Shown here: in pieces, positions 6,651 through 64,000 of the stretch
Position numbering within the stretch: position 1 is the stretch's first letter
Layout of the letters: each line of letters begins with the position of its first letter
Sequence record: NC_028957.1
Reading direction: 5' to 3' (one strand)
Source: Escherichia phage vB_EcoM_VR26
DNA: 64,000 bases
Position numbers and translations under genes: made by a program
Notes under the pieces: model-generated
The model's input: only the letters and a program-made list of their open reading frames with translations
Database searches by the model: none
Told to the model about the DNA's origin: nothing

Positions 6651-7142
6651 TTAAGCAAAATGAATATCAGCATACTCAACGATAAAGCTTTCAGGAATTA
6701 CCTTAAAGGTACCAAGGAACACAATATTATACAGTTTAACCCCCTCTTCAACCCATTGGTCTGTGATATAACCAGACATACTAGTGGTTTCATAAGTCGG
6801 ACCATACTTGCAAATGTATTCAAATGGCTTAGGCGAAACAAAAAAGACACCTTTACCTAATTTCCATTTAAAATCAACCCCAACATGAGACTGGTCAATG
6901 GTTTCAACTTCTTCAACTACAGGAGCAATGTATCCAGTGAATTCAGTTGATTCCAGGAATTTAGGATGCACGTAAGCGAATTGAGTTTCAGTCTGACCAT
7001 TTTTAGGAATGATGCGCACTTTAACTTCTTTAATTCCGCCTACTAAATTAGTACGAATACCGACAACCTCAACAAAACGTCCAGCAGCTCTTGAACGAGA
7101 TTTTTTGGATACACGAACGATTTCGCCAGCTTCAACTTTCAT
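6651..7142 (-). CDS. MotB-like protein (by size and position)
   Basis: 163 aa; perfect TATAAT and TGTACA promoter upstream; C-terminal domain paralogous to 7220..7972. Confidence 0.45.
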   Translation of the reverse strand: MKVEAGEIVRVSKKSRSRAAGRFVEVVGIRTNLVGGIKEVKVRIIPKNGQTETQFAYVHPKFLESTEFTGYIAPVVEEVETIDQSHVGVDFKWKLGKGVFFVSPKPFEYICKYGPTYETTSMSGYITDQWVEEGVKLYNIVFLGTFKVIPESFIVEYADIHFA

Positions 7143-7184
7143 AATTTTCTCTCTTGGTTAATAAGTTTATTCTCCAGTGGGACC

Positions 7185-7213
7185 ATTATACTCTGGCCCC
7201 AAGAGTTTGTACA
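7185..7213 (-). promoter_or_regulatory. early promoter (TGTACA, 17 nt, TATAAT)
   Basis: Perfect TATAAT at 7185-7190; GTGTACA at 7208-7213; upstream of 6651..7142. Confidence 0.55.
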
Positions 7214-7219
7214 CTAAAC

Positions 7220-7972
7220 TTAATTAAAAATTTCAACAGCCATGGAACGCGGGACAACAGTAAATTCACCAGCATGGACGACGTTCAGGAGTTCAACACC
7301 ATCTTCAATCCACTGGTCTGTTACCCAACCACAAATGGAACTATTAAATGGACGTTTGATTTGAACTGGTTTGCACAGCAAGTCAACAGGGTCACCCAGT
7401 TCGCTAACTTCTTTCAACAGTACAGATTCACGCGGGTAAAGGATAGCTTCAAGATGCTCGTCTGATTCATTGACTGCAGTAAATTCAAAGATGTTTAAGT
7501 GAGTGCTGTACTTAACTGTTTTTACAGTAAATGGAGCAAAGCCAAAAATACCTTTCAGCACCCGCCAACCGGCATTCAATGCATTAGTATTATCAAAATC
7601 ACCATATCCAACAAGTTGATAGGTTTTGTCAACTTTGATAGGAGCTTCTTCAACTTCTTTGAAGAGCTCAATCTCAGCTTCATAAACCATAATTTTTTCT
7701 ACTTCATTAGTATCCAGGCGGCGGGCATGCAAAATATATGCTTTATCAAACCAGTTACTTTTTACAAAAGTTTCAACAACAAATTCGCCTTCACCTAAAG
7801 CATCAGTCAGAGTATTATACCCAGAAATCATAGCTGCGTTTTGAATAATAGGTTCAATCAGACGATAAGTTTTGTTAGTTTCGATAGTCATATTTTGTTT
7901 CTCAAGTTTTAATTGTTTAATTGGGCGAACATACATGCTTGTGATATCAAAGTCAATAATTTCTGGTTTCAT
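7220..7972 (-). CDS. hypothetical protein with MotB-like C-terminal domain
   Basis: 250 aa; C-terminus GWVTDQWIEDGVELLNVVHAGEFTVVP aligns with GYITDQWVEEGVKLYNIVFLGTFKVIP of 6651..7142. Confidence 0.5.
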   Translation of the reverse strand: MKPEIIDFDITSMYVRPIKQLKLEKQNMTIETNKTYRLIEPIIQNAAMISGYNTLTDALGEGEFVVETFVKSNWFDKAYILHARRLDTNEVEKIMVYEAEIELFKEVEEAPIKVDKTYQLVGYGDFDNTNALNAGWRVLKGIFGFAPFTVKTVKYSTHLNIFEFTAVNESDEHLEAILYPRESVLLKEVSELGDPVDLLCKPVQIKRPFNSSICGWVTDQWIEDGVELLNVVHAGEFTVVPRSMAVEIFN

Positions 7973-8229
7973 TATGCCACCTCGTTGAACATCGCCAGTT
8001 GATTGGGTTGTACAACCATAATTTCACGACGACCTTTTGCGTTTGACACGTTCAGGTAGATGCCTTTGTTCATGTCTGTTTCTTTATCATATACTGCAAC
8101 TTTATTGACAGTAAAGATTTTACCACGAATATTTGTAAATGCACATTCAAACGCTTTGGTCAGACCTGCTTCAGCAGCTTGAATAGCAGACATTTCATAT
8201 TGTTGGCCAATTTTAAAAGAAGTAATCAT
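7972..8229 (-). CDS. hypothetical protein
   Basis: True ATG at 8227-8229 (MITSFKIG) after GAGGAAA SD; track N-terminal extension is translated leader. Confidence 0.5.
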   Translation of the reverse strand: MITSFKIGQQYEMSAIQAAEAGLTKAFECAFTNIRGKIFTVNKVAVYDKETDMNKGIYLNVSNAKGRREIMVVQPNQLAMFNEVA

Positions 8230-8260
8230 TTTGTTTTCCTCATCAGTAGTTGATGAGATG

Positions 8261-8289
8261 ATTATGTCTCTTTCCATTGGCCTTGTACA
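8261..8289 (-). promoter_or_regulatory. early promoter (TGTACA, 17 nt, CATAAT) with ATCAACTACTGATGAGG leader
   Basis: Leader motif 8239-8258 precedes true ATG at 8227-8229. Confidence 0.5.
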
Positions 8290-8296
8290 CTACTTT

Positions 8297-8980
8297 TTAT
8301 CGTTTTTTCGGTAAAGATAACGGGTCTGCATCTTCTTCGGCAGGAACTTCATCTAAACCAAGAGCATAGCGCTGGGCGTACTTCAACATAAGAATATCTT
8401 TCGCACAATCATGCACACTATCGTGCGCTACAAATCCACCCAAAGTCCCCTTCGGTAACGGAGTTTCACACATCTTACGGACGAGTGACAGTGCTTCGAT
8501 TGCTGTTCGGATATCTCGCTGGTTCCAGAATACAACCGGTTCCAGGTCATAGGTATTCAATTCACGCTCAGGGATACCCTCATTACGCTGCAGGTCGCGA
8601 ATAAGGTCGACAAACAACGGGAAGTCAAAAGACATTCCACGACACCACATAAGGCTTTCGTATTTGTTAATTCCATTACCCTTCAGATAATCAATCGCTT
8701 GTTGGATGCCAGTCAGGGTATCGACATCATTTGCAGTTGGCGCCAGGTTAACACGAGCTTCTGGAGATTGTTTTTTCCACCAACCCATGGTTGTTGTGTC
8801 AAACAGACGTTTACCTTTCTGGTATTCTAGGCTGAACTTAATGCGTTTACCGCGATTAACCAGGGTTTCGAATGATTCCACAATAGCAGGGTCAGATTCA
8901 AATGTAATCAGAGCCAGGTCAATAACGGCTCCCTTCGAGCCGTTTCCCAGAGTTTCAAAGTCAATAATAGCATCAATCAT
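8297..8980 (-). CDS. dexA: exonuclease A (DnaQ-like 3'-5' exonuclease)
   Basis: 227 aa; N-terminal IIDFETLG exonuclease motif; size and position match T4 DexA. Confidence 0.82.
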   Translation of the reverse strand: MIDAIIDFETLGNGSKGAVIDLALITFESDPAIVESFETLVNRGKRIKFSLEYQKGKRLFDTTTMGWWKKQSPEARVNLAPTANDVDTLTGIQQAIDYLKGNGINKYESLMWCRGMSFDFPLFVDLIRDLQRNEGIPERELNTYDLEPVVFWNQRDIRTAIEALSLVRKMCETPLPKGTLGGFVAHDSVHDCAKDILMLKYAQRYALGLDEVPAEEDADPLSLPKKR

Positions 8981-9212
8981 CGCACATCTCTTTTAATTTC
9001 TGAATTTCACCAGCAACATAGTCAGAGATAAAAATCCCGGGCTCTTCATTGTTAAAATATTCAATCGCAGCCATACGTTTCTGGATAAGACTCAGTTCCA
9101 GTAAAACGTAATTGCCCTGTTGGACGATAGTCGGATTATCTTCGTAAAATTCAACGGCATCATGAATACCGTAGATAAGATTATCTAAATCTTCTTTATA
9201 TACCTTATACAT
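8973..9212 (-). CDS. hypothetical protein
   Basis: 79-aa ORF overlapping neighbouring genes by 8 nt on each side. Confidence 0.45.
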   Translation of the reverse strand: MYKVYKEDLDNLIYGIHDAVEFYEDNPTIVQQGNYVLLELSLIQKRMAAIEYFNNEEPGIFISDYVAGEIQKLKEMCDD

Positions 9213-10533
9213 AATATGCGTCGTACCTCGCTCGTGTGATTCCTACATAAGCCAACTGGCTCGCTAATGAAGCTTCAGCCATATGGATGCATGGAGTATA
9301 GATGAATGCTTTGTTTACTGAAACACCCTGTGCCTTGTGGATTGTACTGACTGGAAGAGCACGAACTTTCAAGAAGGTCCGGCGTGCTTTCCAGAAGTCT
9401 TTCCACTCTGGACGTTTACCAGCAGCTTTCATCTGTTTGTATGTATCAGCAACTTTCGCCAGATATGCCTGGAATTTTGGTTGCTGGTCTTCTGGTAAAA
9501 CTTTGATACGGTCAACCTGATATTCTTCATCTTCATCAATTGACTCAACTTCCAGGTCCCAGTAATTAATTACCAACTGGTGCGATTCCCCTTTACAACG
9601 GAGAATGGTGGAAGTGTATTTGCAATCCTTGATACGAACCAACTGACCATTATTAAAAATGGTTTCGCTGAATTTCTTACCTTCAAATTCCAGCTCTTTC
9701 ATATGTGGCTCTTGCATAACCAGGACTTCATACGGTAAAAATGCTTTATCCGTTTCATAGAGCTTGCGACGAATAATATTATTCAGTTTTTCAACTGATT
9801 TATTCGTGTACGCATACATCCTATTTTCCATCAACATATCAGCATCTTTTACATGACTGAAATAGTTTACCATGAAATCCTTTAAAGCGGTTTGTGAGGT
9901 GAAACCTTGTACACCATGACCTTCATACATGCAATCACGGAACCAACCACCATTACGAATTTCTGTCGCCACTTCAATGATAGGAGCATTGCTTCGCATG
10001 ACCTCAGTCAGATGAATCTGTTTGAACTTAGGATGCGTAAAGAATGGACTTATCTTTTGCTGTGTGCTTCCTGGGTCAACTGGCTGCAGCTGGTGCATAT
10101 CACCAATCCCAAGAATGGTACACCACTCTGGAACAGAGTTGCAAATAATCTTAAACAGAGACCCGTCATACATACTTGCTTCATCACAAATCAGAACATT
10201 ACATTTTGACATATCAGGCATTTCGCGCTGTTCAAAAATGTTTTGGTCTTCATATGTGGTCGGGTTAATCTTCAGGATGCTATGGATTGTATTCGCTGTT
10301 TGGCCAGACAATTTGGATAAAACCTTTTTTGCCTGGTGAGTTGGTGCAGCAAGCACAATTCCCAAAACTCCATTACGTACCAGGTGGTCAATGACAAATT
10401 TTGTCAGAGTAGTCTTACCTGTACCAGCTGGACCATTCAGAGTGATACATTCCCCTGAACGTCGCTGAATAGCTTGGGTGATATAATCAAAAGCTTCTTT
10501 TTGTCCTGTGTTCAAGTCTTCAAATTTAATCAT
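9205..10533 (-). CDS. dda: Dda DNA helicase (SF1B)
   Basis: 442 aa; Walker A GPAGTGKTTL; N-terminus resembles recalled T4 Dda. Confidence 0.9.
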   Translation of the reverse strand: MIKFEDLNTGQKEAFDYITQAIQRRSGECITLNGPAGTGKTTLTKFVIDHLVRNGVLGIVLAAPTHQAKKVLSKLSGQTANTIHSILKINPTTYEDQNIFEQREMPDMSKCNVLICDEASMYDGSLFKIICNSVPEWCTILGIGDMHQLQPVDPGSTQQKISPFFTHPKFKQIHLTEVMRSNAPIIEVATEIRNGGWFRDCMYEGHGVQGFTSQTALKDFMVNYFSHVKDADMLMENRMYAYTNKSVEKLNNIIRRKLYETDKAFLPYEVLVMQEPHMKELEFEGKKFSETIFNNGQLVRIKDCKYTSTILRCKGESHQLVINYWDLEVESIDEDEEYQVDRIKVLPEDQQPKFQAYLAKVADTYKQMKAAGKRPEWKDFWKARRTFLKVRALPVSTIHKAQGVSVNKAFIYTPCIHMAEASLASQLAYVGITRARYDAYYV

Positions 10534-10829
10534 GCCAATTTTACTCGCTTAACATATAAAGTATCTAAAACCAATTTCAGTTCTCTTGCACGGTCTTCTG
10601 TAGGGAACACAGTTTTGGTTTCCCGCTTATCAAACCACCATTTTCTTGGAATGTACAAAGTTTCAATACGTCCCATACTTAAATATCTTTTTGTGGTGTA
10701 TGAATAGTTGGCAAGTTCATAATCCGCGGCGAACTTTGTGGTATACAAGGTAACCTTCCCATCATACTCCAATGGATGTTCAAATCCATCCTTATCTTTG
10801 TAAACCAATACATAAGCGTAGTACATCAC
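10530..10829 (-). CDS. hypothetical protein
   Basis: 99-aa ORF, operon frame. Confidence 0.45.
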   Translation of the reverse strand: MMYYAYVLVYKDKDGFEHPLEYDGKVTLYTTKFAADYELANYSYTTKRYLSMGRIETLYIPRKWWFDKRETKTVFPTEDRARELKLVLDTLYVKRVKLA

Positions 10830-10830
10830 A

Positions 10831-11577
10831 TTAACCTCTAATCAGTTTAAAAATTGACGCGTTCAAAGGCAGACCACGTTTCAGTTTTAATTTACCAATA
10901 AAACCAATCTTCTCAAAACGCTCAAGACCTTGAATGATTTTATCATAGCAATCAAAAAGCGTTTCAGCATTAGTTAATTTCTTGGTAACTTTCCAGTCAT
11001 TACCCTTGAGCAGGACATTCAATTTAGTAAGCTCATGACCTTCTGCAATACGGGAACCATCAATGCGAGCCTTCAGAGCAACCATTTTTAATTGGTTTTC
11101 TTTTGACTGCTCTGATTTACTCATTTGGGCATAATGCTTAACGCGATTCTCACGTTTGTGCTGGATGTTCTTTATATGGTTGTATGACTTTTTAATCTGT
11201 TCCCATTTCTCTGAAGTCAGATTTAACTTTTCAATCTTCTTGGCAGATGGGCGAGCAATTTTTACAGCAACATCATCACGACGTTGTTTAAGCTCACCCA
11301 GGGACCAATCAGAACGCATGGTATTATATTTCTTTTTAACAGGAATAACATTACCCTTGATATAACCAATATCATTGTTAAAACGTTCTAATGATAACTT
11401 CTCGTCTTCAATAGAGTTATTAAATGCTTCACCGGAATAAGCACAAACTTTTTGGTCAAGAATGTTAACCAAGTAATTGAAATCTAGGTTAAAGTCCTTA
11501 CCACGGCGTTTAGCAGAAGCTTGAGTGTGTTCCAGGCGACGTTTAACTTTCAGCGTTTTGGTTTTTGATAAAGTCAT
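10831..11577 (-). CDS. hypothetical basic protein (srd position)
   Basis: 248 aa; Lys/Arg-rich; lies between dda and the ADP-ribosyltransferases where T4 has srd; no motif recognised. Confidence 0.4.
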   Translation of the reverse strand: MTLSKTKTLKVKRRLEHTQASAKRRGKDFNLDFNYLVNILDQKVCAYSGEAFNNSIEDEKLSLERFNNDIGYIKGNVIPVKKKYNTMRSDWSLGELKQRRDDVAVKIARPSAKKIEKLNLTSEKWEQIKKSYNHIKNIQHKRENRVKHYAQMSKSEQSKENQLKMVALKARIDGSRIAEGHELTKLNVLLKGNDWKVTKKLTNAETLFDCYDKIIQGLERFEKIGFIGKLKLKRGLPLNASIFKLIRG

Positions 11578-11624
11578 GATATTTTTCTCATCTTACGGAC
11601 GATTAAATAACTCAGTATGGAATC

Positions 11625-11652
11625 ATTATACACTATTCATCTTTTATGTACA
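11625..11652 (-). promoter_or_regulatory. early promoter (TGTACA, TATAAT) with CCATACTGAGTTA leader
   Basis: Upstream of 10831..11577. Confidence 0.5.
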
Positions 11653-11712
11653 CTACTTTTTCGCCTTTAACGCTTTTATTTTTACTGTGTATAATGGTTC
11701 TAAGGTCTTTGG

Positions 11713-58549: not shown

Positions 58550-58775
58550 CACGTTCCCACGATTTTTTAAAGATTTCAGCCATAATAATTTCAATACGTG
58601 TTTCTGTTGATGGCGATTCACTACTAGAAGTTTGAACTCTGTATTCAGAAATCGGGCGGAACAAGTCCAGGTCAATTTCTAAATCATCTTTGATTTCAAC
58701 TTCGGGCGTACCTTTATCATAGGAATACAGGTAAGAATCACATGACTCTGATTTAATATAAATTGCAATACTCAT
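58539..58775 (-). CDS. hypothetical acidic small protein
   Basis: 78-aa ORF. Confidence 0.4.
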   Translation of the reverse strand: MSIAIYIKSESCDSYLYSYDKGTPEVEIKDDLEIDLDLFRPISEYRVQTSSSESPSTETRIEIIMAEIFKKSWERDDE

Positions 58776-59353
58776 TTACGGCATTCCTCAATAAAAGAGT
58801 TTAATGTATTTTTCTTTGTAACATCATCATATACCTTTTTAACTTTAGAAATACGAAAAGGTACTTCAATAACAGAGGTCCATAAAAATGATGCGATAAG
58901 TCCTGAGATAGCCGCAGACATAGCTGACGCGAATACAGAAATAGGCAGGTCATTATCTGTTGTCAGGAAAAAACCCAGGATTGGAAAAAACAGTATCCCC
59001 ATCCAAACATAGAACCTGGAGCACACCAACTTGTCATATTCATCGCTCCATGTACGAAAACCATATTTTTCACTATAACAAATCAATGGGTCAGGTGTTT
59101 GTTCTTTATGCGGTTCTGGTTGCCAACCTTTAACGATGTGCTTCATTTTATATTCCTCAATTAAAAGCTCTTTCATATGCCGGTTACAATGCGACCAATC
59201 AACGTTTTCCACCTTGATTCCTTCATCACCATCATCAAGGTTTGCCCAATATCTTTTGGTAATCATAAATTCATCTCTTGGAACTGGAATACCTGCACAT
59301 CCTTGTGGACCTTTCATATCACCCATGCAACCGGGTTCATACATCATTACCAT
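58772..59353 (-). CDS. membrane protein with C-terminal FIEECRK tail
   Basis: 193 aa; hydrophobic segments; C-terminal tail resembles 63255..63608 and 63595..63978. Confidence 0.45.
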   Translation of the reverse strand: MVMMYEPGCMGDMKGPQGCAGIPVPRDEFMITKRYWANLDDGDEGIKVENVDWSHCNRHMKELLIEEYKMKHIVKGWQPEPHKEQTPDPLICYSEKYGFRTWSDEYDKLVCSRFYVWMGILFFPILGFFLTTDNDLPISVFASAMSAAISGLIASFLWTSVIEVPFRISKVKKVYDDVTKKNTLNSFIEECRK

Positions 59354-60033
59354 CCCTCCATAGGGAATTCTAGATATACTTGGGCATTAACGCGGATTTC
59401 ATTGGTAATATTTTTAACACGGTCAGTGTTACGAGATACACGACCAAACCAACGCCAGCCATTGCGCACTGTCTGGGAACCAGTATGCCAGGTATGACAA
59501 TTAAACTGCAGGAGTGTGCGGTCAGGAGCTTCCCATTGCTCTAATTCACCTGATTCAATTTTAGTCAGAACTTCTTTATGCCATTGGCGATAAATCAATT
59601 CACCTTCCGGGATTTCACTAAAGGTAGCTTCGCCTGTAGCAAAATGGGTAGGACACACATCAGCGTTAACAAGACCAAGAATGTGTTCAGACATATAGCG
59701 AGGATTGTCATAATCTGGTTGACCCGCAGTAATAAAATGTTGTCCAGTTGGAATGGGTGGACGCGGAACATCATCATGATGATAGCCAGGGATAGCTGGA
59801 TACCAACCCGGCATTAACATATGCACACGTGAATCAAACACAACATGTTGATTAGTCCAATCAATTGGGAGATTGGCAATAAAGCTACGAGTGATTGGGC
59901 CACCATTATCCCAAGCAAAACTCAAATCACAGTTAAAGAACATTGGTTCATTTTTGATTTGGTCATTTTGTACGTTATGTGCAAAACCACCTACTGCACG
60001 AGCTTGACTATTAAAAGTTTTAGGACCGTTCAT
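59347..60033 (-). CDS. hypothetical protein
   Basis: 228 aa, His/Trp-rich; no recognised motif. Confidence 0.45.
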   Translation of the reverse strand: MNGPKTFNSQARAVGGFAHNVQNDQIKNEPMFFNCDLSFAWDNGGPITRSFIANLPIDWTNQHVVFDSRVHMLMPGWYPAIPGYHHDDVPRPPIPTGQHFITAGQPDYDNPRYMSEHILGLVNADVCPTHFATGEATFSEIPEGELIYRQWHKEVLTKIESGELEQWEAPDRTLLQFNCHTWHTGSQTVRNGWRWFGRVSRNTDRVKNITNEIRVNAQVYLEFPMEGW

Positions 60034-60092: not shown

Positions 60093-60743
60093 TTATTTTT
60101 GTCTATTATAATATTTCAATTCAGCGGCGCGACGTCTTTCCATTGCTTCGTCACGAGAATCACCATAGTAAAGTTGGATTTCTTTATGATTAACAGTAAT
60201 ATATGATATCCATTTACCTCTGTCTTTTCTAAACTTGACACCTGTAATTGGACCAGGTGAATCTTTTCGGGTATCCTGGTCAAATGACTGTATTGATGAT
60301 GAAGCCCATTCGCAAGTTTCTTTACTGTATAGCTTACATGAATTTATCCGATTAATGCTTGTACCTGCTGGACGAATACCCATATCTTCAACAAAATTCA
60401 AATAACCAGTTTTTCCCTTTGGTAGCCACCTATCACATATTTGTACACCAGCGCCACCATACTGCTTCCAACGATGATGGTTAGGATTTGTACACCTTTC
60501 AATCATGGCAGCATACGATGAATATGTAGGTTTGTCAGAAATAAATGAATAATGATATTTCTGACAGCCGCATGATTTGGTTTTACCTGATTTTATACGA
60601 GCGGCGGCTGTGACAAACTCTTTACCACAATGACAAATACAATTCCATTTAGTAGAAACTCCAGCGGTTTTATATGCTACCGAAACAAATTTGATTCCAT
60701 TAATAATTTTACCAGTCAAATCTTCTAATGGTCTTCCCATCAT
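60093..60743 (-). CDS. zinc-finger/AP2-like DNA-binding protein (homing-endonuclease-like)
   Basis: 216 aa; N-terminal CICHCG...CGC; central NPNHHRWKQYGGAGVQICDRW; C-terminal AP2-like segment. Confidence 0.45.
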   Translation of the reverse strand: MMGRPLEDLTGKIINGIKFVSVAYKTAGVSTKWNCICHCGKEFVTAAARIKSGKTKSCGCQKYHYSFISDKPTYSSYAAMIERCTNPNHHRWKQYGGAGVQICDRWLPKGKTGYLNFVEDMGIRPAGTSINRINSCKLYSKETCEWASSSIQSFDQDTRKDSPGPITGVKFRKDRGKWISYITVNHKEIQLYYGDSRDEAMERRRAAELKYYNRQK

Positions 60744-61705
60744 TCATCCTTTTTGAATGGTTTAATTAAATGCTGGTTAGCCTTAAAACGTTTAATATAA
60801 TCGTCATGACCTAAAGCATTATACATACTTATAATTTTACCATAATTTTCATATGCGAAGGTGCGGAACCATCCAGAAGTAATGGAGGTGCAGACTTTTT
60901 CCAGAGCCATATGGAAGCTATGGCTTGCAGGGATAATAAAATCATTAGGAACCTGTGAACGCTCCAGAGCGAGTACACATGCTTCTTCATAAACCCCTGC
61001 CAGTTTAATAACATCAGGGAGTGCTTCAAATTTTTCGCGTGAGGTCATGACTTCTGAATCATCCTTCATATAGAACTTATATGCGGGCTTATCAGCAAGC
61101 GCCACGGCCTCGTGGATGGAGTCATGGTCAAGGGTATAGATTGTATCATTAAAGAAAGTTTTCTTGCCCACGTCTAGTTTAGGGTGGCTATATGACAGTG
61201 TTTCTGCCTGGCGTTGTTGCATAATTTTCTGCAGTTCATCATTAAGAACAACACCCTTATTGCGAAGGTAATTAATATGACTCATGGTCTTCAGGAAGAA
61301 TGGATTGTTCTTCAGGTAACGATGAGATAATTTAATTGCCAGACAAATATCAGGAGTCGCCCAGTAAAAACCTGTAAGACGGTCCTTTTTAATATGATTT
61401 TCAGCATATTTCAGGAGACGATAACTTGAGGTGAAATCTTCGTCTTGAAGCTCGCCAGTAATTTCTCGTACGTTGGTCAGGGCACGGACAATATAAGCTT
61501 CAAAATAGGTTTCTTTGCCATTGTACATACATTTAAAAGCTTGGACATCAGGGTTATCCACAGGAACATGAGCACCGAACATACGTGCTTTAAAGTGGTT
61601 CCATGAGCCTTGGTCGGCAATGAAATCCCAATCAGAGTTTTCAATTTTCTGACTTTCAATCAGACCAGCGTTATGTAATGCACGAGAACCAATAACTAAC
61701 ATCAT
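60740..61705 (-). CDS. hypothetical protein
   Basis: 321-aa ORF; no recognised motif. Confidence 0.45.
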   Translation of the reverse strand: MMLVIGSRALHNAGLIESQKIENSDWDFIADQGSWNHFKARMFGAHVPVDNPDVQAFKCMYNGKETYFEAYIVRALTNVREITGELQDEDFTSSYRLLKYAENHIKKDRLTGFYWATPDICLAIKLSHRYLKNNPFFLKTMSHINYLRNKGVVLNDELQKIMQQRQAETLSYSHPKLDVGKKTFFNDTIYTLDHDSIHEAVALADKPAYKFYMKDDSEVMTSREKFEALPDVIKLAGVYEEACVLALERSQVPNDFIIPASHSFHMALEKVCTSITSGWFRTFAYENYGKIISMYNALGHDDYIKRFKANQHLIKPFKKDE

Positions 61706-61989: not shown

Positions 61990-62223
61990 TTAGCAGCTAC
62001 TCGGATACCAGATTTTACCATCGGCACGAGCAACGAAGGTACGACCAGCTTCTTCACCATAACAAGAGCTGTTCAACCAGTCTTCAAGACGGACTTCGCC
62101 GTCATAATCATCAAGCTCAACACCAAAATCTTGAGCAGAAGCCATATCTTTTACTTTCTTATACAGTGCAGCCAGTTCAAGGGCGGCTTTTTCTAATTCA
62201 GCATGTTCAACAGCAGTAGTCAT
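61990..62223 (-). CDS. small protein of the C-terminal SS-C paralog family (copy 5)
   Basis: 77 aa ending ...KIWYPSSC; GGTGA SD. Confidence 0.55.
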   Translation of the reverse strand: MTTAVEHAELEKAALELAALYKKVKDMASAQDFGVELDDYDGEVRLEDWLNSSCYGEEAGRTFVARADGKIWYPSSC

Positions 62224-62232
62224 TTTATCACC

Positions 62233-62460
62233 TTAGCAAGACATAGAGGAGTTAAACCAGAAACCTTTACCATCTGGGATACCGTAATCACCACGAATCC
62301 AGTCATACTCTTCGTATTCTGGACAACCCGCGGGAATATATCGTTGAAGACTGTCAGCATATACATGAAAGTATTCACCAGTTTTATCGGCCAGTTGTTC
62401 ACCTTCACAGATTAGTGCACGGATTTGGTCTTCAATTTCTTTAACAGTTTTAGCAGTCAT
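62233..62460 (-). CDS. small protein of the C-terminal SS-C paralog family (copy 4)
   Basis: 75 aa ending ...GFWFNSSMSC. Confidence 0.55.
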   Translation of the reverse strand: MTAKTVKEIEDQIRALICEGEQLADKTGEYFHVYADSLQRYIPAGCPEYEEYDWIRGDYGIPDGKGFWFNSSMSC

Positions 62461-62469
62461 TTTATTTCC

Positions 62470-62667
62470 TTAGCATTCGTAAGAGGAGGACACCCAAGAG
62501 GTACCACTAATAGTAATACAGCCATTATAAAGCGTGATATGTCGTTCTAGGTCACGCTGACCATCAATATAGATATCAGCTTCTTCACGTTCTTCTTTAC
62601 AAATCTGGATAACGTTTTCAATAGCTGCCGCGGCAGTACGGATTGCACAATCTAATTCACGAGACAT
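62470..62667 (-). CDS. small protein of the C-terminal SS-C paralog family (copy 3)
   Basis: 65 aa ending ...SWVSSSYEC; GGAAA SD. Confidence 0.55.
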   Translation of the reverse strand: MSRELDCAIRTAAAAIENVIQICKEEREEADIYIDGQRDLERHITLYNGCITISGTSWVSSSYEC

Positions 62668-62676
62668 AATAGTTCC

Positions 62677-62958
62677 TTAACATTCAGAAGAGGAGGACAC
62701 CCAACCGCCTTTTTCCAGGCTGGTAGTGTAATCATGTTGGTTTACAATAGCCCATTCAGGATGACCATGTTCTTCCCAATGAGCAAGGTCAGCTTTCAGG
62801 GCGCCAGGAGAATAATAGTCACCGCCCATACCGCGAGCAGGGTATATATTAAAATGAGTCTCATATTTGTCTGCAATTTCCTCGGCACGACGAATAGCTT
62901 TATGGATGTCATTTACTGCGTTAGCCAGTTCTTTATTTTTACGGTAATCATTCATCAT
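62677..62958 (-). CDS. small protein of the C-terminal SS-C paralog family (copy 2)
   Basis: 93 aa ending ...GGWVSSSSEC. Confidence 0.55.
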   Translation of the reverse strand: MMNDYRKNKELANAVNDIHKAIRRAEEIADKYETHFNIYPARGMGGDYYSPGALKADLAHWEEHGHPEWAIVNQHDYTTSLEKGGWVSSSSEC

Positions 62959-62967
62959 AGCGTTTCC

Positions 62968-63258
62968 TTAGCACATTGCCGAAGAGGAGACCCAAGCACC
63001 AACTGTAACGACACCGTTTTCAACTTCACCGCCGCTGTTTTCAATTTCATCTTTAAACCACTGGGAGCATTCATAACCGACAGGATAATATGTACGGCCC
63101 GAACCATAATCACCGGTACCAAATTGGATACCATATTCATCTGCGATTTCTTCACAGTGTTTTTCAATTTCAGAGGTCTTATTTAGAAGAGAATAGATAG
63201 CTTTTTCTGCAGATTTCTCATCATAATACTTGGGGATAGCAATTTCAATTTTATTCAT
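62968..63258 (-). CDS. small protein of the C-terminal SS-C paralog family (copy 1)
   Basis: 96 aa ending ...GAWVSSSAMC; start overlaps upstream stop (ATGA). Confidence 0.55.
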   Translation of the reverse strand: MNKIEIAIPKYYDEKSAEKAIYSLLNKTSEIEKHCEEIADEYGIQFGTGDYGSGRTYYPVGYECSQWFKDEIENSGGEVENGVVTVGAWVSSSAMC

Positions 63259-63608
63259 GATTTACATTCCTTAATAAAGGTTTCAAGGTCATTACGTTTT
63301 GTTTTGTCTAGGAACTTATTATACTCAGCCATTGCTGAAGCGTATCTCTTCCGACTAGGAGCATTCACGGCATTTGTGTGGCAAATATCATACACAACAG
63401 GGATAAAATAAGACACAACAGCCGGAGCGATTATCATAAAGAAACCCATCTCAATGGGCATCACTCCCTCGATTGCAGCCATAACCGTGGTCATTACCAG
63501 ACCAACCAAGCCGCCAAGCATGGCGGTGACAATCCCTAATAATAAATTGGCACCAATATCATATTCAGCCAATTGATAAACATGTGATGCAAGACTAGGC
63601 CGTTCCAT
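63255..63608 (-). CDS. two-pass membrane protein with C-terminal FIKECKS tail
   Basis: ATG at 63606-63608 (MERPSLASH) with AAGGAGG SD; two hydrophobic segments. Confidence 0.5.
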   Translation of the reverse strand: MERPSLASHVYQLAEYDIGANLLLGIVTAMLGGLVGLVMTTVMAAIEGVMPIEMGFFMIIAPAVVSYFIPVVYDICHTNAVNAPSRKRYASAMAEYNKFLDKTKRNDLETFIKECKS

Positions 63609-63978
63609 TACGAACCTCCTTAATAAATTCTTCGGCACATTTAATTTTGTGCTCTTCTTGCAGGGAAACACATTTTTGTTCCCACTCTTTAACTCGTCCA
63701 CGATATCCTTTATTCATATGATTTTGATGCCACACGTTTATCAATAACATGCTCAGGACTGTAATAAAAGGTGCTGCAATTATTAGTGACCAGGCGACTC
63801 CAACACTAATGATATTCATATCCCCACAAAGCACCATCATTATAACCCCAACGATGCACATGGACAGAGCTCCAAACGCAGGCATAAGGTCTTTATCAAT
63901 CTTGTCTGCATATACAAATTTTTCTGGTTTACTTGGCAGATATAGCGTTCGCATTTTGAACCTCTTTAGCGTATTCAC
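63595..63978 (-). CDS. two-pass membrane protein with C-terminal FIKEV tail (paralog)
   Basis: 127-aa ORF; start near window edge uncertain; same architecture as 63255..63608. Confidence 0.45.
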   Translation of the reverse strand: MNTLKRFKMRTLYLPSKPEKFVYADKIDKDLMPAFGALSMCIVGVIMMVLCGDMNIISVGVAWSLIIAAPFITVLSMLLINVWHQNHMNKGYRGRVKEWEQKCVSLQEEHKIKCAEEFIKEVRNGTA

Positions 63979-64000
63979 GACATTCAGTAATAAAACGATT

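Follow-up and report, generated by a model that had tools for sequence, protein, structure and literature searches.

Predicted membrane hairpins encoded by e.2, e.3, and e.4 of Escherichia phage vB_EcoM_VR26 share a C-terminal tail motif with soluble neighbors

The hyperplastic regions of T4-type phages are known for modular shuffling by promoter/stem-loop (PeSL) cassettes. Among the small genes of these phages, e.5, e.4, e.3, and e.2 form one contiguous overlapping block in T4 and RB14, with e.3 abutting e.2. T4 RNA from all four genes is early and all four proteins have been detected, those of e.4 and e.5 being classed as early, that of e.2 as middle, and that of e.3 as late (PMC9697503 supplements), and CRISPRi-ART knock-down of each gene was scored "Not Fit," with no fitness effect (PMC11879866 supplement 15). 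Here we examine a 64,000-nucleotide stretch of Escherichia phage vB_EcoM_VR26 (NC_028957.1; hereafter the window), in which a preliminary description had singled out three minus-strand open reading frames (ORFs) as paralogous two-pass membrane proteins. These ORFs correspond to e.4, e.3, and e.2, which are already annotated in T4, VR7, and SP18 with unknown function and are therefore not new genes. What their predicted products have in common is a conserved C-terminal tail, also carried by soluble proteins encoded next to them.

The part of the window between 61.7 and 64.0 kb shares 97-98% DNA identity with Escherichia phages vB_EcoM_VR20 and VR7 and 96% with Shigella phage SP18, and we assign it to a VR7/VR20/SP18-like T-even coliphage (Straboviridae, Tevenvirinae, Gaprivervirus). 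Comparison with 38,880 PHROG profiles, taken with annotation and position, supports the assignment of the three ORFs as orthologues of T4 early genes:

63595..63954, minus strand: e.4 orthologue, 119 amino acids, two-transmembrane (TM) hairpin plus tail (...EEFIKEVRNGTA), from phrog_2604, its annotation as e.4 in SP18, and its N-terminus
63255..63608, minus strand: e.3 orthologue, 117 amino acids, two-TM hairpin plus tail (...NDLETFIKECKS), from phrog_2330 and identity to VR7 e.3
58772..59353, minus strand: e.2 orthologue, a poorly modeled N-terminal domain, two-TM hairpin, and tail (...NTLNSFIEECRK), from phrog_2203, alignments, and AlphaFold2

The e.4 product matches phrog_2604 over its full length (E=8.5e-44), that of e.3 matches phrog_2330 with residues 1-117 on positions 1-122 of 122 (E=4.9e-46), and that of e.2 matches phrog_2203 over residues 30-193 (E=1.7e-68). 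The window e.3 is 100% identical to annotated VR7 e.3, 46 relatives carry PF26896 or match the e.2-family profile, and PF26873 is the Pfam assignment of the e.4 family, known from relatives only. All three genes lie within a denV-e-nudE-e.x block, e.2 being two genes upstream of the endolysin gene e, and annotations and gene order are concordant across VR7, SP18, VR20, T4, RB14, JS98, ST0, and Entb_45.

The locus resembles that of T4 in profile matches, in its nudE-to-e.6 position, in its overlapping genes, in hairpin architecture, and in the tail. Unlike T4, this phage has about 3.9 kb of other genes between e.2 and e.3, namely, a 228-amino-acid ORF, an HNH endonuclease, a DUF7277/DUF7275 protein, a 55-amino-acid ORF, and five SS-C genes. 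The window e.2 is intact and has a 29-residue N-terminal extension, in contrast to the disrupted T4 reference copy, and the window e.4 differs from the T4 set in having no tail Cys.

Hydropathy supports a common membrane architecture. The e.2, e.3, and e.4 proteins each have two hydrophobic segments with 19-residue Kyte-Doolittle peaks of 1.8-2.3, joined by loops of 4-7 residues without Lys or Arg and followed by C-terminal tails of 33-43 residues that contain 8-9 of these basic residues. By the positive-inside rule, all three are predicted to be inner-membrane helical hairpins of N-in/C-in topology with a cytoplasmic C-terminal tail, and the occurrence of the same tail on proteins without hydrophobic segments is a second basis for placing it in the cytoplasm. 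The segments are as follows:

63808..63876, minus strand: e.4 TM1, residues 27-49, from hydropathy and charge analysis
63724..63795, minus strand: e.4 TM2, residues 54-77, with an IIAAP motif matched by IIAP in the alignment to e.3
63477..63551, minus strand: e.3 TM1, residues 20-44, from hydropathy, charge, and AlphaFold2
63387..63455, minus strand: e.3 TM2, residues 52-74, from hydropathy, charge, and AlphaFold2
58961..59020, minus strand: e.2 TM1, from hydropathy, charge, and AlphaFold2
58874..58948, minus strand: e.2 TM2, from hydropathy, charge, and AlphaFold2

Hydropathy and charge bear out the earlier description of two hydrophobic segments and a charged tail in every one of the three proteins. 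AlphaFold2 modeled e.3 as three helices (residues 7-46, 53-81, and 84-116) at low confidence, with a mean predicted local distance difference test score (pLDDT) of 54. In the e.2 model, helices span residues 103-130 and 136-192, so that the tail extends the second helix; pLDDT is mostly 79-92 across TM1 and TM2, drops to 73-63 over the last 20 residues, and is below 50 in the N-terminal domain.

The tails end in FIKEVRNGTA (e.4), FIKECKS (e.3), and FIEECRK (e.2), as had been reported, and a fourth copy of the motif (…RFITECREY…) lies at the edge of the window in the gene at the e.5 position:

63610..63627, minus strand: e.4 tail motif FIKEVR, a Cys-less variant whose K-E-V codons are the e.3 Shine-Dalgarno sequence AAGGAGG (63615..63621)
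63261..63278, minus strand: e.3 tail motif FIKECK, with K-E codons AAGGAA (63267..63272) 8 nucleotides (nt) ahead of the first SS-C ATG
58778..58795, minus strand: e.2 tail motif FIEECR, with E-E codons GAGGAA (58787..58792)
63929..64000, minus strand: 3' end of the e.5-position gene by translation, last 24 codons (...NRFITECREYAKEVQNANAISAK*), truncated where the window ends

Within 25 residues of the stop, e.2 and e.3 carry LxxF[IV]xEC[RK], and e.4 carries the variant FIKEVR. Among 1056 six-frame segments of the window, 2 have the strict motif F[IV]x[ED]C[RK] in their last 30 residues, where 0.045 would be expected; it is also present in the e.5-position fragment.

How far the similarity extends beyond the tail differs from pair to pair. 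BLASTP aligned e.4 and e.3 over 84 residues covering the end of TM1, TM2, and the tail (E=1e-5), aligned e.3 and e.2 only over the last 17 residues (E=2e-4), and gave no significant match between e.4 and e.2 (E=0.058). The best non-self PHROG matches were to sibling families (e.4 to phrog_2330, 0.0039; e.3 to phrog_2203, 6.9e-4; T4 e.3 to phrog_2604, 0.007), and the cross-matches among tail families span TM2 and the tail. When family alignments built from ten T-even loci were used in hidden Markov model (HMM) searches over all 769 ORFs of at least 45 residues, the only matches beyond each model's own family were to other tail families. In hhalign comparisons, e.2 and e.3 aligned over 16 columns (score 44.9, probability 92%), e.3 and e.4 over 53 columns (39.0, 88%), and e.3 and a Mosigvirus 101-amino-acid family over 18 columns (36.9, 87%). 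Reversed-target controls scored at most 19.6, with a probability of at most 2.2%, and the direct comparison of e.2 with e.4 was no better than control level. A credible case can therefore be made for paralogy of e.3 and e.4 over TM2 plus the tail, while e.2 appears to be joined to them by the tail and the common architecture, its detectable similarity to e.3 covering about 16 tail columns. Of the proposal that the three are paralogs, the shared tail and two-pass architecture stand, but support for homology beyond the tail is confined to e.3 and e.4.

The tail is not confined to membrane proteins. The full-length VR20 orthologue of the e.5-position gene (L003 9228..9782) encodes 184 amino acids, matches phrog_8788, and has no hydrophobic segment by eye; in full-length relatives the e.5-position protein is soluble. 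T4 e.5 (phrog_2607; precomputed Pfam PF26876) and the phrog_8788 protein of Gaprivervirus and Dhakavirus both carry an F[IV]xECREY motif near the C-terminus and are both encoded directly upstream of e.4 and overlapping it, as in the window, where the overlap is 26 nt. Unlike e.2 to e.4, both types lack hydrophobic segments by eye, and they show hardly any relationship between themselves (hhalign 59% over 27 columns). Among other T-evens, the T4 tails are FVIDCRKIK (e.3), FVKESRCKSQS (e.4), and FVKECREYVK... (e.5), and the RB14 e.2 tail is FITECRKLK. Mosigvirus carries the tail on e.2, e.3, e.5, and an extra 101-amino-acid two-TM protein (FIKECRGK), and Kanagawavirus has the variants FVKGCRNGRN, FIKNVRRK, and FVDQCRANIK. 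The conserved unit is therefore a C-terminal module found on no fewer than six protein families, of which two are soluble.

The module also appears to be restricted to these families and detectable nowhere else. A tail profile searched against 1.84 billion representative proteins gave 15 matches at E<=1e-3, of which 13 belong to the tail families or to hybrids among them; the remaining pair, proteins of 4589 and 851 amino acids, look spurious. A search with the tail alignment returned mostly fragments yet revealed the chimeras and newer Pfam accessions. Across 24 members of the e.2 family, some with as little as 23% identity, the motif keeps its F, C, and R without exception. A word-indexed homologue search with e.3 recovered relatives at >=72% identity only, and tblastn placed e.3 and e.2 in coliphage-type T-evens and e.4 in Klebsiella phages too. 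As to what kind of helix the tail might form, a membrane-targeting amphipathic helix of the MinD or FtsA type was considered and set aside because of the acidic residues in the motif and a hydrophobic moment of only 0.19-0.40.

The upstream ORF had been delimited at 63595..63978; it is present, but its GTG 63978 start (127 amino acids) is less likely than ATG 63954 (119 amino acids), which is most likely the start because AAAGAGG lies 6 nt upstream, the N-terminus is T4-like, and SP18 and VR20 annotate e.4 as a 360-nt gene. The N-terminus from ATG 63954, MRTLYLPSKP, matches that of T4 e.4 (MSKPSLYLPSKP), with LYLPSKP common to both, and the stop TAG is at 63595..63597.

63961..63967, minus strand: e.4 Shine-Dalgarno sequence AAAGAGG, within the e.5-position gene (codons A-K-E-V), from sequence

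Gene e.3 lies in the nudE-to-e.6 block and overlaps e.4 on its upstream side by 14 nt, beginning at ATG 63608..63606 with AAGGAGG (63615..63621) 6 nt ahead; its stop and the first SS-C start overlap as ATGA (63255..63258). This 14-nt overlap, the AAGGAGG ahead of e.3, and the stop-start overlap with SS-C are all as the preliminary description had them.

The start of e.2 is ambiguous among ATG 59353, ATG 59347, and ATG 59266. ATG 59347 has the best Shine-Dalgarno spacing and agrees with the VR20 N-terminus, and ATG 59266 is the counterpart of the T4, RB14, and Mosigvirus start. Public annotations disagree here as well, giving 495 or 585 nt. The 29-residue N-terminal extension (59266..59353, minus strand) is confined to Gaprivervirus and Dhakavirus and is weakly conserved except for YEPGCMG. 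In the T4 reference, e.2 (L004, NC_000866, 2473..2961) is annotated with 102 amino acids, but this copy is interrupted. A segment of about 26 codons reads out of frame and contains two stops; beyond it the original frame continues with TM2 and the tail (…NLNNFITECRKLK), inside the supposed nudE-e.2 intergenic gap. RB14 e.2 is intact at 162 amino acids, and the T4 interruption could be a real lesion of the laboratory lineage or a reference error.

Members of the tail family have been gained, lost, and fused. Gene e.4 is missing from the Dhakaviruses JS98 and vB_EcoM_005, where the flanks meet cleanly at the repeated initiation sequence AARGAGGTTCNNAATG (about 2330..2430 of L010 for JS98 and about 5940..6040 of L005 for vB_EcoM_005). 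The JS98 junction reads as the window sequence ahead of e.4 up to AAAGAGGTTCAAAATG and then directly as the e.3 reading frame, which is what recombination between two near-identical initiation regions would be expected to produce, and with the joint at this position the JS98 e.5-position protein ends …KEVQNGTA, like window e.4. Two natural chimeras among metagenome and phage proteins join an e.4 N-terminus to an e.2 hairpin and tail (P0079) or make an e.3::e.4 tail hybrid (P0020), and in phiC120 e.3 is reduced to a 34-codon remnant (L007 4989..5090). Single members are therefore expendable, and redundancy or diversification is a better fit than an obligate complex. As in PeSL cassettes, short border repeats coincide with gene gain, loss, and fusion; unlike in PeSL cassettes, the repeat here is a coding tail plus the next initiation region, with no promoter or hairpin signal seen. 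A scan of 57-64 kb for sigma-70 promoters and terminators found nothing above chance, and no T4 late-promoter box occurs within that interval. No boundary of a transcription unit emerged from the scan.

The best-supported description of these genes is that their hairpins would present a conserved cytoplasmic helix that is also carried by soluble neighbors. We propose that the hydrophobic stripe L..FI..C on one face of this helix would form a shared cytoplasmic docking or oligomerization surface, tethered to the inner membrane by the hairpins and borne on a soluble domain by e.5-type proteins. The products could then associate mutually or engage one common partner early in infection, in a dispensable, host-dependent accessory role (host takeover or counter-defense) rather than in lysis or the main superinfection-exclusion pathway. 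Taken as a whole, orthologous hairpins with a shared, selected tail and a docking surface that serves an early accessory function have in our judgment a probability of about 0.5. Taken on its own, the tail helix as a common docking or oligomerization surface for an early host-dependent accessory function is more tentative, its chances being below even.

Several observations weigh against this proposal. The expression and fitness data come from T4 and are transferred to this phage by orthology at 23-33% identity. Docking is a proposed property of the tail surface. The e.3 model is of low confidence (pLDDT 54), and pLDDT in the N-terminal domain of e.2 is below 50. Window e.4 has the Cys-less FIKEVR, and e.4 of T4 and Mosigvirus shifts the Cys (FVKESRC, FVKEIRC), which means that no essential function depending on the Cys can be shared by every member. 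That individual members are often lost disfavors an obligate hetero-complex, and conservation of the tail is partly confounded with its second job as a downstream ribosome-binding site.

That second job raises the question of whether the tail is mainly a nucleotide-level initiation or coupling cassette (TTT ATT RAG GAR ... ATG), copied along with each duplicated or recombined gene and encoding a functionless peptide. The tail's (K/E)-E codons (RAGGAR) act as Shine-Dalgarno sequence for the following gene, 5-8 nt ahead of its ATG, in e.2, e.3, and e.4 of the window and in T4 e.4; the GAGGAA of e.2, for example, lies 8 nt ahead of the ATG of a 78-amino-acid downstream ORF that overlaps it as ATGA. 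Tail codons thus often supply the next Shine-Dalgarno sequence, and conservation is partly dual-coded. The Dhakavirus e.4 deletion, which joins exactly at the repeated initiation region, and the e.4 tails, which code for the e.3 start region and stray furthest from the protein motif, also fit a nucleotide cassette. In both e.5 types, however, the motif precedes the next start by 20-40 nt and the stop by 13-17 codons, A-K-E-V codons (AAAGAGG) form the Shine-Dalgarno sequence instead, and F-[IV]-x-E-C-R-E-Y is still kept. Residues are fixed across families while synonymous codons vary freely (CGT, CGA, CGC, AGG, and AGA for Arg, TGT and TGC for Cys, TTT and TTC for Phe), and the L at -3, F, and I/V, which are upstream of the Shine-Dalgarno codons, are conserved too, falling with C on one helix face (spacing i, i+3, i+4, i+7). 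Because of the e.5-type placement, the free codon choice, and the one-face hydrophobic positions, the tail is not a DNA element alone; selection at the amino acid level keeps the F, C, and R, and a cassette with a functionless peptide seems to us improbable. We read the tail as a protein element co-opted as a translational joint, or the reverse. Hairpin-enforced coupling was also considered and dropped, as RNAs of four gene junctions folded no more strongly than shuffled controls (z -1.0 to +0.4), and coupling would therefore be a matter of geometry only.

The other alternatives concern function and gene neighborhood, and both had been raised in the preliminary description. One takes the products of e.2 to e.4, which are encoded near the endolysin gene e, for proteins that time lysis in the manner of holins or antiholins or that exclude superinfecting phages. 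Class II holins, T4 Imm, and lambdoid SieB are likewise small proteins with two TM helices and a charged cytoplasmic C-terminus, and the hairpins, N-in/C-in with a charged tail and of 117-119 amino acids, resemble class II holins and small exclusion proteins; e.2 stands two genes upstream of e, and the T4 e.3 protein is classed as late accumulating (PMC9697503). The likeness is one of architecture only, as no sequence or profile similarity accompanies it. Searches of e.2, e.3, and e.4 against Pfam, NCBIfam, PADLOC, and PDB sequences gave no significant match; Pfam holins, antiholins, and T4 Imm gave none at E<=1, the anti-phage defense profiles of PADLOC gave none, and the only named near-miss, SieB (PF14163), scored 11.8 bits against a 26-bit gathering cutoff (E=0.19). 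T4 lysis depends on t and e, lysis inhibition on rI, rIII, and rIV, and exclusion on imm and sp. To our knowledge no T4 lysis, lysis-inhibition, or exclusion function maps to e.2-e.4, nor do we know of any genetic link of these genes to lysis or exclusion. Main-text literature searches on e.2-e.5 found nothing relevant, and the sections of the HIDEN-SEQ study that deal with conditionally essential T4 genes do not mention them. Early RNA and dispensability in T4 argue against an essential lysis role and, with T4 genetics, disfavor the main exclusion role as well, so we regard a holin-like or exclusion function as very unlikely. An equally remote prospect is that the membrane proteins and the small SS-C proteins make up one translationally coupled module, for example, as membrane anchors with soluble Cys-terminal partners:

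61990..63258, minus strand: SS-C array, five tandem small paralogues after e.3, outside the tail family, from phrog_899 and phrog_4882

The ATGA overlap of e.3 and SS-C is kept in Gaprivervirus, Dhakavirus, Mosigvirus, and Kanagawavirus, as such a module would have it. The synteny check told otherwise: T4 and RB14 keep e.5-e.4-e.3-e.2 contiguous with no SS-C genes at their loci. SS-C proteins are also encoded by T4-like phages of Aeromonas, Klebsiella, Enterobacter, and Serratia, a host range (Aeromonas, Klebsiella, Serratia) that exceeds that of e.3, for which Aeromonas and Klebsiella are not among the ten commonest organism names of tblastn matches. No similarity between the tail family and SS-C surfaced in any search, none of which compared them directly, and no RNA structure enforces coupling. 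Because T4 and RB14 lack SS-C, SS-C has the wider host range, and the junction RNAs are unstructured, we conclude that SS-C and tail-family genes adjoin one another within a single long transcription unit without forming a functional module. Nor do the membrane protein genes head the array, since at least one tail-family gene overlaps e.4 upstream (63929..64000) and VR20 has e.6 and further genes beyond the e.5-position gene.

Other genes of the region add context. The SS-C proteins, of 65-96 amino acids, have an invariant W, S-S, and C-terminal Cys (W-x-S-S-x-x-C*), and 9 nt separate each gene from the one that follows. Three of these joints were read in sequence; their spacer is TAAGGAAnnnnnATG, so that the stop codon belongs to the Shine-Dalgarno sequence of the following gene. 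Just upstream of the tail-family block, e.6 (L003 9826..10419; L004 4313..4906) looks by eye far better conserved than the block itself when T4 is compared with VR20; it resembles a long coiled coil and has no significant Pfam match. Between e.2 and the SS-C array, a 228-amino-acid protein (59347..60033, minus strand) is conserved, matches phrog_1843, and is RB69 ORF132c-like, the stop of its ORF overlapping a candidate e.2 start as TAATG. A 216-amino-acid ORF (60093..60743, minus strand), whose PHROG matches are to HNH endonucleases (phrog_374, 1.8e-59), occurs in this phage, VR7, and vB_EcoM_005, is absent from the same spot in VR20 and SP18, and looks like an insertion polymorphism of a free-standing homing endonuclease. 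A conserved 321-amino-acid protein (60740..61705, minus strand) contains Pfam DUF7277 and DUF7275. Searches with these neighbors identified only DUF7275/DUF7277 in the 321-amino-acid ORF and the HNH-endonuclease PHROGs in the 216-amino-acid ORF, and the 228- and 321-amino-acid proteins had no PDB or NCBIfam match. In several public records (L005 [NC_055783] 6651..11699, MW250787, and PP693301), SS-C ORFs, e.2, and neighbors are labeled "tail completion protein," "major capsid protein," "tail sheath monomer," or the like. These labels look like annotation-transfer errors because the orthologous ORFs are called "hypothetical protein" elsewhere and no match to a structural-protein family was seen for the window copies.

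The literature that we searched gave no account of four to five consecutive early genes, membrane and soluble, whose products end in one cytoplasmic motif, or of a tail motif dual-coded with the start region of the next gene, and the shared, dual-coded tail is in that sense a modest new insight. The likely pay-off is modest too, since laboratory growth does not require these genes and a single phage group carries them. A broader and more speculative idea, which we think unlikely as it stands, is that the LxxF[IV]xEC[RK] helix is a portable docking module that enterobacterial T-even phages graft onto anchors and soluble domains, with its DNA serving also as a joint. If so, the early products of e.2-e.5 would come together at the inner membrane or would trap one particular host factor there, and about 25 bp of tail DNA would double as the next ribosome-binding site and as a recombination joint for duplication, deletion, and fusion. 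Should the tail prove to be a docking element, a peptide or a point mutant would offer a single handle on a whole block of early T4 "dark matter" genes, and the locus would illustrate on a small scale how dual-coding joints power the turnover of cassettes in hyperplastic regions of phage genomes.

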